A DNA stretch of 64,000 nt from a virus, in IMG/VR virus record IMGVR_UViG_3300044615_001997. One strand, given 5' to 3'. Of this stretch, positions 56,652 to 57,365 are shown in pieces; positions within the stretch are counted from its first letter, which is position 1; each line of letters starts with the position of its first letter. The notes below the pieces were generated by a model, which saw only the letters and a program-made list of their open reading frames with translations, did not search any database and was not told the DNA's origin. The position numbers and the translations under genes were made by a program.

Positions 56652-57365
56652 CTGGCCGTGTGCGGCCATAAGATAACCCCAGTAATGGGGACAAAGTGAA
56701 CTCTCATCACCGTGAGAGTTTGCGGGGATCTTCGATCCCTCTGAGCACACAAGGAGGTAATCATCTTTTCTGCCTGTTGAGGGTTAGAAAAGTTGCTCGT
56801 CGGTTGAGACCCGATGGGTGAGTGCGAAAGTACAATAAGGAAACCTTTAGCTGATATGCGAGCAACTGGACTGGTAATCCAGCAATCGCGTTTAGCAGCC
56901 TAGAAGTTGTCGCTAGAGCAATCTAGAGGCAACTACGAAACAGTGACGACCAGTCACAGGACTAGTAGCGCATCGATTCCCTCAAAAGGGGAGTTGGCGG
57001 AACCCGCAAGCACTAGTTCGGAAATCTCGGGTGAACATGACTTGTCTCGAAAGAGACTCATTAACCAAAAAGGAAAGCCTTGCGGCTTCTGCAGTGAAAG
57101 ATGACTTCGTCCCAAGTTACGCTTGGGGTTTGCTGGCTCCCTAAGGCCAGTATGATAGAGGTTAGGATAATCTTTGGATACCGTTGCTGGTATTGGAGGG
57201 TGCGTAGCCTTCACAGAGAGGAACTAGCGAACAACTGTGGTTGAAACCCTGACTCAGGGAAATTGAGTCGTCATTGCTGGGTACGTTGCAAAACAACGTG
57301 GATAAAACGGAGAATCAATATACTCCGTCAGAGACCAGTACTTATAGCTGTAATCTCAAGCTATA
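56652..57365 (+). ncRNA. GOLLD-like giant structured RNA (~715 nt)
   Basis: ORF-free, GC-richer and packed with hairpins (GGGATC-TTC-GATCCC, GTCTC-GAAA-GAGAC); 3' end GGTACGTTGCAAAACAACGTGGATAAAACGGAGAATCAATATACTCCGT...TAGCTGTAATCTCAAGCTA matches my recollection of the GOLLD 3' domain. Confidence 0.7.

Follow-up and report, generated by a model that had tools for sequence, protein, structure and literature searches.

The stretch from 56652 to 57365 of the window, by which we mean the whole 64-kb piece of DNA analyzed here from a 121-kb phage record in IMG/VR, encodes a genuine GOLLD RNA in a divergent, shortened form, recognizable in both its conserved 3' domain and its 5' domain. What appears from its sequence to be a structurally complete Pistol self-cleaving ribozyme (57372 to 57439, plus strand) follows it directly; nothing else at the locus is as distinctive, and an earlier note on the same DNA had not weighed it. 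The best explanation, which we hold with reasonable rather than high confidence, is that the locus belongs to a large myovirus-type phage and specifies a divergent short-form GOLLD that would be started by its own promoter, ended by the Pistol ribozyme, and assembled into a cage, with expression, cleavage, and assembly all predicted from sequence.

The covariance model (CM) search that the earlier note had proposed as a check gave a significant match to the GOLLD family (RF02032) at 56958 to 57362, almost exactly the predicted interval of ~56950 to 57365. The match covers positions 1 to 416 of the 416-position model without truncation, scores 141.2 bits with an E value of 1.2e-38, is returned identically by a search of the whole record, and defines the conserved 3' domain (56958 to 57365, plus strand). 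Because this score lies just under the Rfam gathering score for RF02032 (150 bits), a default Rfam scan misses the GOLLD and lists Pistol only; the GOLLD surfaces only under E-value thresholds. How divergent is this RNA? For comparison, GOLLD 3' ends were collected from IMG/VR with a degenerate pattern derived from the most conserved positions of the model, which yielded at least 120 loci. All 49 searchable records among them contain a full-length GOLLD, at 172 to 334 bits, so that the window GOLLD, with the lowest score of the 50 viral GOLLDs scored, is the most divergent of them. Both its rank and its score below the cutoff weigh against the explanation given above, and the latter would suit a new class of large RNA that shares only a few motifs with GOLLD. 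Such a class is nevertheless extremely improbable and was ruled out on three grounds: a match at E = 1e-38 spans the entire 416-position model, the 5' domain is independently homologous to that of GOLLD (see below), and a hidden Markov model (HMM) built from 102 other GOLLD 3' domains matches the window at 57267 to 57367.

In the CM alignment, which was used in place of a MAFFT alignment of 3' domains that is unreliable for the central part of the window sequence, every helix of the model is present; ~86 of ~98 pairs are canonical, ~9 are noncanonical, and 3 are deleted. The parts of the domain are a UCAAAAG-loop hairpin, a variable linker (J13/15, ~57021 to 57090), a long-range helix that keeps 8 of its 10 bp, a three-way junction with both of its hairpins, a GUGGAUA..GAA..AAUA hairpin, and a terminal hairpin, and the near-invariant UCAAAAG, GUGGAUA..GAA..AAUA, and GUAAUCUCA elements are intact. 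The sequence features that the earlier note had singled out are all found where it placed them: the CAAAAGG-loop hairpin at ~56980 to 56994, the GTGGATAA..GAGAA..AATA element beginning at 57298, and the terminal hairpin, in which TATAGCT (57343 to 57349) and AGCTATA (57359 to 57365) enclose GTAATCTCA (57350 to 57358). By both CM and alignment, this last hairpin (57343 to 57365, plus strand) is the equivalent of P27 with its near-invariant GUAAUCUCA loop; the GUA.UCUCA positions of the loop are invariant across 16 aligned GOLLDs, and the stem has 7 bp versus 3 to 4 bp in most GOLLDs. Folding of the whole 714-nt stretch gives a minimum free energy of -266.8 kcal/mol, compared with -214.9 ± 9.1 kcal/mol for dinucleotide shuffles (z = -5.7). 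In one provirus of the comparison set (L037), the J13/15 linker of the GOLLD holds a tRNA T-arm-like GGTTCGATTCCCG, consistent with published mycobacterial GOLLDs in which a tRNA is embedded.

The 5' half, which the earlier note had taken to be lineage specific, turned out to be homologous to the mainstream 5' domain, minus ~90 nt in two deletions. Defined by nhmmer and alignment, it occupies 56652 to 56957 (plus strand) as a short form of ~306 nt versus ~390 nt in mainstream GOLLDs. With this interval as the query, nhmmer detects a weak, consistent similarity to ~50 GOLLD 5' regions, always beginning from query position 2 or 3. A 14-sequence alignment of 5' domains analyzed with RNAalifold shows the same helices, with 93 predicted pairs, 71 of which show compensation in at least part of the set; the window retains 61 of the 80 pairs that can be aligned, 25 of them by double changes relative to the majority. 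The missing segments are a small hairpin (alignment columns 162 to 183) and a larger hairpin (columns 354 to 382) together with a linker (columns 401 to 433), ~90 nt in total. From the start to the terminal hairpin, the window RNA measures ~714 nt, whereas other GOLLDs measure 793 to 830 nt (median, 808 nt), with one at 751 nt.

Short GOLLD forms are an already known type of variation. The reference structure is that of env-38 GOLLD (RF02032; 833 nt), a D7 14-mer cage (PMC12990946; Kretsch et al. bioRxiv 10.1101/2024.12.08.627333), with which the window RNA shares the full 3' domain, a homologous 5' domain built of the same helices, the UCAAAAG, GUGGAUA..GAA..AAUA, and GUAAUCUCA elements, the hairpins equivalent to P21a/b, and a phage location. 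The window RNA differs in being ~100 nt shorter, in missing the two 5' segments, in being richer in GC, and in a CM score less than half of the 300 bits typical of GOLLD; moreover, env-38 lies downstream of a Met-tRNA, whereas the window GOLLD has no tRNA neighbor but a promoter-like site and a 3' ribozyme. The GOLLD of Streptococcus agalactiae (700 nt; PDB 9L0R per PMC12990946), as far as that source describes it, forms a 12-mer and is missing P9, P11a-c, and P21b entirely and P7 and P10 in part. Both RNAs thus occur naturally in a shortened form, alike in length and each with a trimmed 5' domain. The window deletions fall, tentatively, in the distal P7 and P11 regions, where the streptococcal RNA also lacks parts, a comparison made by description rather than by sequence and with helix numbers inferred from text rather than from published figures. 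P21b, absent from S. agalactiae GOLLD, has its counterpart in the window, which retains both three-way-junction hairpins.

Could the window RNA be a decaying, nonfunctional remnant, picked up by the phage, losing sequence, and no longer under selection? Its last place among the 50 GOLLDs scored, the ~90 missing nucleotides, the 19 of 80 alignable 5' pairs that look broken in the MAFFT alignment, and the complete lack of GOLLD in close phage relatives would all fit such a history. However, all elements of the Rfam model are present and untruncated, the invariant loops are intact, the 25 doubly changed pairs kept in the 5' domain point to selection for structure, and a similarly shortened natural GOLLD is known to assemble. 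The folding energy stands well apart from shuffles (the z score given above), and the GC content of the stretch is 48% compared with 38% for the phage. Several of the pairs counted as broken are also register shifts of the aligner, as in the hairpin at 56943 to 56957, which is intact. Decay is therefore very unlikely, and a structured short form remains our preferred reading.

The Pistol ribozyme (RF02679) starts 14 nt beyond the GUAAUCUCA loop and is matched over model positions 1 to 68 at 47.4 bits, above the gathering score of 34.5. Like typical Pistols (env25 structures 5K7C and 5KTJ), it has P1 (UCUC/GAGU), P2 (GGAU/AUUC), an 8-bp P3, the AUAAAUA linker, and a 6-bp pseudoknot (CUUGGC/GCCAAG), the last with a compensatory U-A pair where the consensus has G-C and with one A-A mismatch at its end. 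Purine-32, the G33-C41 pair, G40, and G42 are functionally critical residues of Pistol (PMC6154101); in env25 numbering, the aligned equivalents of purine-32, G33, G40, C41, and G42 are A, G, G, C, and G. The predicted scissile bond lies between G57434 and A57435, 5 nt before the 3' end of the ribozyme. On these features, cleavage activity is likely.

What do other GOLLDs carry at this position? Among 100 nonredundant GOLLD 3' flanks of up to 120 nt, 52 have a terminator (median start at +33), 18 have a tRNA, and 14 have a T-run that follows the hairpin immediately, while a crude scan recognized nothing in the remaining 16. In the set that was not deduplicated, 23 of 120 other loci have a same-strand tRNA 9 to 22 nt after the loop, an arrangement in which a processing element abuts the GOLLD 3' hairpin, as in the mycobacterial and phage tRNA arrays of Morgado et al. 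2020, to the extent that they are cited in PMC12990946. The 3' flank of the window GOLLD has none of these elements, and no plus-strand terminator was found from 57365 to ~58400. With Pistol standing at +14, the ribozyme appears to occupy the slot in which other GOLLDs carry an end-forming element. In tRNA arrays, the tRNA is cut by host RNase P, whereas Pistol would act as an autonomous ribozyme that needs no host enzyme. The lack of an adjacent tRNA, as the earlier note had stated, is confirmed: ARAGORN finds none in the 64-kb window, and the three tRNAs of the whole 121-kb record each lie >40 kb from the GOLLD. A tRNA within 1.5 kb downstream is itself found in only 31 of 120 other viral GOLLDs.

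At the other end, the earlier note had assigned the RNA its own consensus promoter, putatively read by host sigma70 on infection, a claim that stands for position but not for motif. A sigma70-like promoter (56617 to 56645, plus strand) is formed by TTGACT (56617 to 56622), a 17-nt spacer, and TATACT (56640 to 56645), with 10 of 12 matches; the predicted start is at ~56651 to 56654, and the -10 element ends 6 to 8 nt ahead of the conserved GOLLD 5' start. Sites with at least 10 of 12 matches occur 34 times in the window compared with 40.6 ± 7.2 times in shuffles, a chance frequency for which the motif was rejected as stand-alone evidence. It is thus the position that supports the promoter: from the motif density, the probability of a site on the right strand within ±5 nt is estimated at ~0.003. 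In 44 distinct other GOLLD loci, a conserved leader, CTGATAAAGATAWT, precedes the GGCCG start, and the best sigma70-like score is 8 of 12; in one other GOLLD, the leader comes just after the 3' end of a tRNA. In the window, the promoter-like site replaces this leader. The CTGATAAAGATAWT leader (L025 to L144, for example, L029, L043, and L074) lies outside the Rfam model, commonly with a small hairpin ahead of it; it may mark where the RNA truly begins, or it may act as a processing signal.

Is the association of Pistol with GOLLD confined to the window? When the 118 other viral records with a GOLLD from the 3'-end pattern set were searched with the Pistol CM, none gave a match, and a specific GOLLD-end-plus-Pistol pattern was found in none of the metagenome and genome contigs by exact-pattern scans, which could miss diverged relatives. 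A loose version of the pattern hit two viral contigs (L002 and L003), which were rejected as chance matches, with no Rfam family in either. The converse search, in which 103 viral loci with a strict Pistol core were scanned with the HMM from 102 GOLLD 3' domains, revealed a same-strand GOLLD downstream of Pistol in six of them (L220, L230, L246, L163, L225, and L162); Rfam confirmation of the GOLLD covers five of the six, namely, L220, L230, L163, L225, and L162. In L230, L246, and L163 (198 to 216 bits), Pistol ends 361 nt ahead of the 3' domain, which is one 5'-domain length. The gap shrinks to 308 nt in L220 (212 bits), where the GOLLD, a 683-nt short form, starts immediately after the last Pistol strand. 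The gap is ~1.45 kb in L225 and L162 (130 and 81 bits, respectively, the latter clipped by the contig end). As in the window, Pistol and GOLLD share one strand of a phage RNA island, and cleavage would set one end of the GOLLD. The order is reversed, however: in the six loci, Pistol would trim the 5' end of the GOLLD, whereas in the window, which alone among the cases found has Pistol 3' of the GOLLD, the promoter would set the 5' end. The GOLLDs of the six loci are only 41 to 42% identical to that of the window, which is 49 to 53% identical to mainstream GOLLDs, indicating separate origins of the link. By these sequence comparisons, the Pistol-GOLLD link has arisen in at least three GOLLD lineages, the window being one and the six loci accounting for two. 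The recurrent association is apparently unpublished; in the searchable library, the only paper found to mention both Pistol and GOLLD does not connect them.

The usual setting of a phage Pistol is a short gap between genes (median, 390 nt), ~40 nt after an open reading frame (ORF), with a tRNA nearby in 1 of 109, whereas the window Pistol lies behind a giant noncoding RNA in a 2.2-kb ORF-free island. Six Pistols with >1 kb of ORF-free upstream sequence have no known large RNA family there. Other features of the Pistol-bearing loci deserve mention. In L230 (11471 to 8287, minus strand), Pistol and GOLLD (216 bits) are followed by a transfer-messenger RNA (tmRNA; 75 bits) ~1.9 kb past the GOLLD 3' end, and a second, partial tmRNA-like match lies at 6216 to 6329. 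L207 (695 to 1925) and L228 (4620 to 6635) contain arrays of three Pistol cores within 1.2 to 2 kb, mostly abutting ORF ends, which suggests polycistronic transcripts punctuated by Pistol. A Pistol-bearing phage contig, L170, has a subthreshold HEARO-like match (1002 to 1185, minus strand; 46.5 bits versus a threshold of 83).

In the mechanism that we propose for the window, transcription would start at ~56652 from the sigma70-like promoter and run through GOLLD, Pistol, and ~1 kb of further structured RNA. Pistol would then cleave itself between G57434 and A57435, releasing a GOLLD of ~783 nt that keeps the ribozyme as a 3' tail with a 2',3'-cyclic phosphate, and the downstream RNA would gain a 5'-hydroxyl end. 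Pistol would thereby do the end-forming job that a tRNA (through RNase P) or an intrinsic terminator does elsewhere. By analogy with the env-38 and S. agalactiae structures, the mature RNA would self-assemble into a homo-oligomeric cage, whose copy number may differ from 14, since part of the cap-forming 5' domain is missing.

Several points, besides the low GOLLD score and the chance frequency of the promoter motif, weigh against this explanation. The CM alignment drops one position of the Pistol junction, leaving A, and the junction reads G-A rather than G-U if the terminal U-G pair of P3 is opened; the junction dinucleotide is only modestly conserved among Pistols, and the junction length is highly conserved (PMC6154101). 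The Pistol score of 47 bits is also lower than the 60 to 78 bits of six typical phage Pistols. No relative with the GOLLD-then-Pistol order was found in the viral, metagenome, and genome collections. Finally, since Pistol cuts near its own 3' end, the GOLLD would keep a tail of ~75 extra nucleotides, unlike the arrangement at the other GOLLD-linked Pistols found, which all lie upstream and would trim the 5' end, and the main client of the ribozyme here could be the downstream RNA.

The last point leads to a different account of what Pistol does at this locus, one that we regard as somewhat unlikely: the ribozyme would serve mainly the RNA at 57440 to 58445 by giving it a clean 5'-hydroxyl end, and its contact with GOLLD would reflect gene order in an RNA operon with Pistol as general punctuation. 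A cut 5 nt before the 3' end of the ribozyme suits the formation of a 5' end, Pistol lies upstream of the accompanying GOLLD in L220, L230, L163, L225, and L162, and phage Pistols typically punctuate intergenic gaps, ~40 nt after an ORF. The sequence that would benefit is a hairpin-rich, ORF-poor region of ~1 kb (57440 to 58445, plus strand), which ends with CCCAG..CUGGG followed by CACUUUUUU, is probably cotranscribed with Pistol, and may represent a single unclassified RNA, or several, that Pistol sets free. However, this region is only putatively a functional RNA, and it has no detectable relatives: it gives no Rfam match at E values of up to 10, and an nhmmer search of the upstream region, Pistol, and downstream kilobase of the window against 120 GOLLD and 103 Pistol loci returned the Pistol core only. 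Furthermore, Pistol fills the exact slot of tRNAs elsewhere, and a specific complementarity links the end of the GOLLD with the Pistol core. The same cut would also set the 3' end of the GOLLD, so that the two accounts are not exclusive; formation of the GOLLD end by Pistol remains the reading that we prefer. Within the downstream kilobase, a 118-nt element (57910 to 58027) is closed by a perfect 17-bp helix. A 9-mer, TTTAGCTAT, is repeated at 58025 and 58441, where it comes after T-runs at two module ends of the RNA island, and recurs at 36360 and 37301 and at five further sites of the record; this 9-mer may be a phage regulatory or terminator-associated motif.

The complementarity just mentioned involves 57336 to 57357, comprising J26/27, the 5' arm of P27, and the L27 loop of GOLLD, and 57408 to 57431 (both plus strand), comprising the GAGCG core of Pistol, the 5' arm of P3, its loop, and part of its 3' arm. 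Together they can form an alternative helix of 21 pairs at -24.3 kcal/mol. Nested folding of 57335 to 57445 gives -30.1 kcal/mol for the resulting rod and -15.1 kcal/mol for P27 plus the Pistol helices, a comparison that leaves the pseudoknot and tertiary contacts uncounted. An energy of -24.3 kcal/mol was reached by none of 2,000 shuffles of the partner, none of 2,479 other phage 32-mers (best, -18.2 kcal/mol), and none of 99 other GOLLD loci in the same search (mean, -9.5; best, -20.6 kcal/mol). When the search starts from Pistol, 4 of 93 other Pistols have an upstream complement that is as strong in raw energy; after shuffle normalization per locus, the window Pistol ranks as the most extreme of 94 from phages (z = -3.1; others, median of +0.1 and minimum of -2.85). 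With z values of about -3 to -5, the modeled helix is suggestive. As the L27 loop organizes the 3' core of GOLLD in the env-38 structure (Kretsch et al. bioRxiv 10.1101/2024.12.08.627333), the helix would, if formed, sequester both this loop and the Pistol catalytic core. This single locus would be compatible with a hypothetical folding-coupled switch or with an RNase III-type stem. In the switch scenario, which is speculative and in our judgment unlikely, the helix would exclude the native GOLLD core and an active ribozyme; cleavage, and with it the freeing of GOLLD and of the downstream RNA, would occur only once L27 is locked in the tertiary core, or else the uncleaved rod could keep GOLLD from assembling into a cage. 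Pistol would then be a device dedicated to the maturation of giant phage RNAs, which at least three GOLLD lineages would have recruited independently.

The RNA island itself lies in a 2.2-kb gap (56266 to 58457) without ORFs of at least 100 amino acids (aa) and is preceded by a terminator-like hairpin (56294 to 56310, plus strand) that ends the upstream gene cluster. The phage is of a divergent myovirus type, with genes including those for a tail sheath, a baseplate wedge, and a head protease. A blastn search of 56300 to 58500 against 50,697 phage records gave no match, the neighboring 297-aa protein led to no relatives, and the neighboring 172-aa protein led to 21 distant loci, with no GOLLD in the 17 records searched. 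Three relatives were identified through the tail sheath (G067, G068, and G069; 42 to 53% identity), two of them in records 97 to 100% complete and 190 to 204 kb long, and neither a GOLLD nor a credible Pistol was found in any of the three. The borders of the slot are conserved in these relatives, namely, a protein of the tail module (216 aa; 40% identical) on one side and a minus-strand protein of 433 aa (57% identical) on the other, and in all three, the equivalent slot is occupied by a tmRNA scoring 118 to 156 bits (L154, 1400 to 2039, in G067; L153, 1814 to 2212, in G068; and L155, 5616 to 6052, minus strand, in G069). No tmRNA was found in the window's own record. Because the same slot of its relatives holds a tmRNA, the GOLLD island sits in a hot spot for large structured RNAs, which points to phages swapping such RNAs there.

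The relatives hold other RNA elements around this slot. In G067, the tmRNA 3' end is followed after 17 nt by a group I intron-type ribozyme (68.7 bits, above the cutoff), which has no obvious downstream exon and may serve to form a 3' end. G069 has an abiF RNA (L155, 2088 to 2124, minus strand; 47.2 bits, above the cutoff) and, ~240 nt past the tmRNA, a Pistol-like element (L148, 1501 to 1546, minus strand; 19.9 bits; E = 1.5) in which a perfect P1 and a UAUAAAUA core are accompanied by a hairpin and by a strand that is complementary to the P1 loop. Lacking the GAGCG catalytic core and given its E value, this element was rejected as a canonical Pistol and may be either a Pistol that has degenerated or a match by chance. 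A sequence similar to TTTAGCTAT, CTTTTAGCTATT, is found after it.

GOLLD is among the largest noncoding RNAs of bacteria and phages and builds protein-free cages. What is new at the present locus is the promoter-like site, the lack of a tRNA neighbor, the Pistol at the 3' end, the recurrent Pistol-GOLLD link, and a possible alternative helix. The Rfam default threshold misses real but divergent GOLLDs, and short forms with a trimmed cap domain are found not only in streptococci but also in large lake-type phages. A layout of one promoter, one giant RNA, and one ribozyme is compact and convenient for expression and structural work. If the sequence-based predictions hold, the ends of GOLLD can be formed by an autonomous ribozyme rather than by host tRNA-processing enzymes or terminators. 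Taken together, the Pistol-GOLLD loci offer a concrete, testable job for Pistol, a ribozyme class without an assigned biological role, and suggest that defined ends matter for the assembly of the cage.

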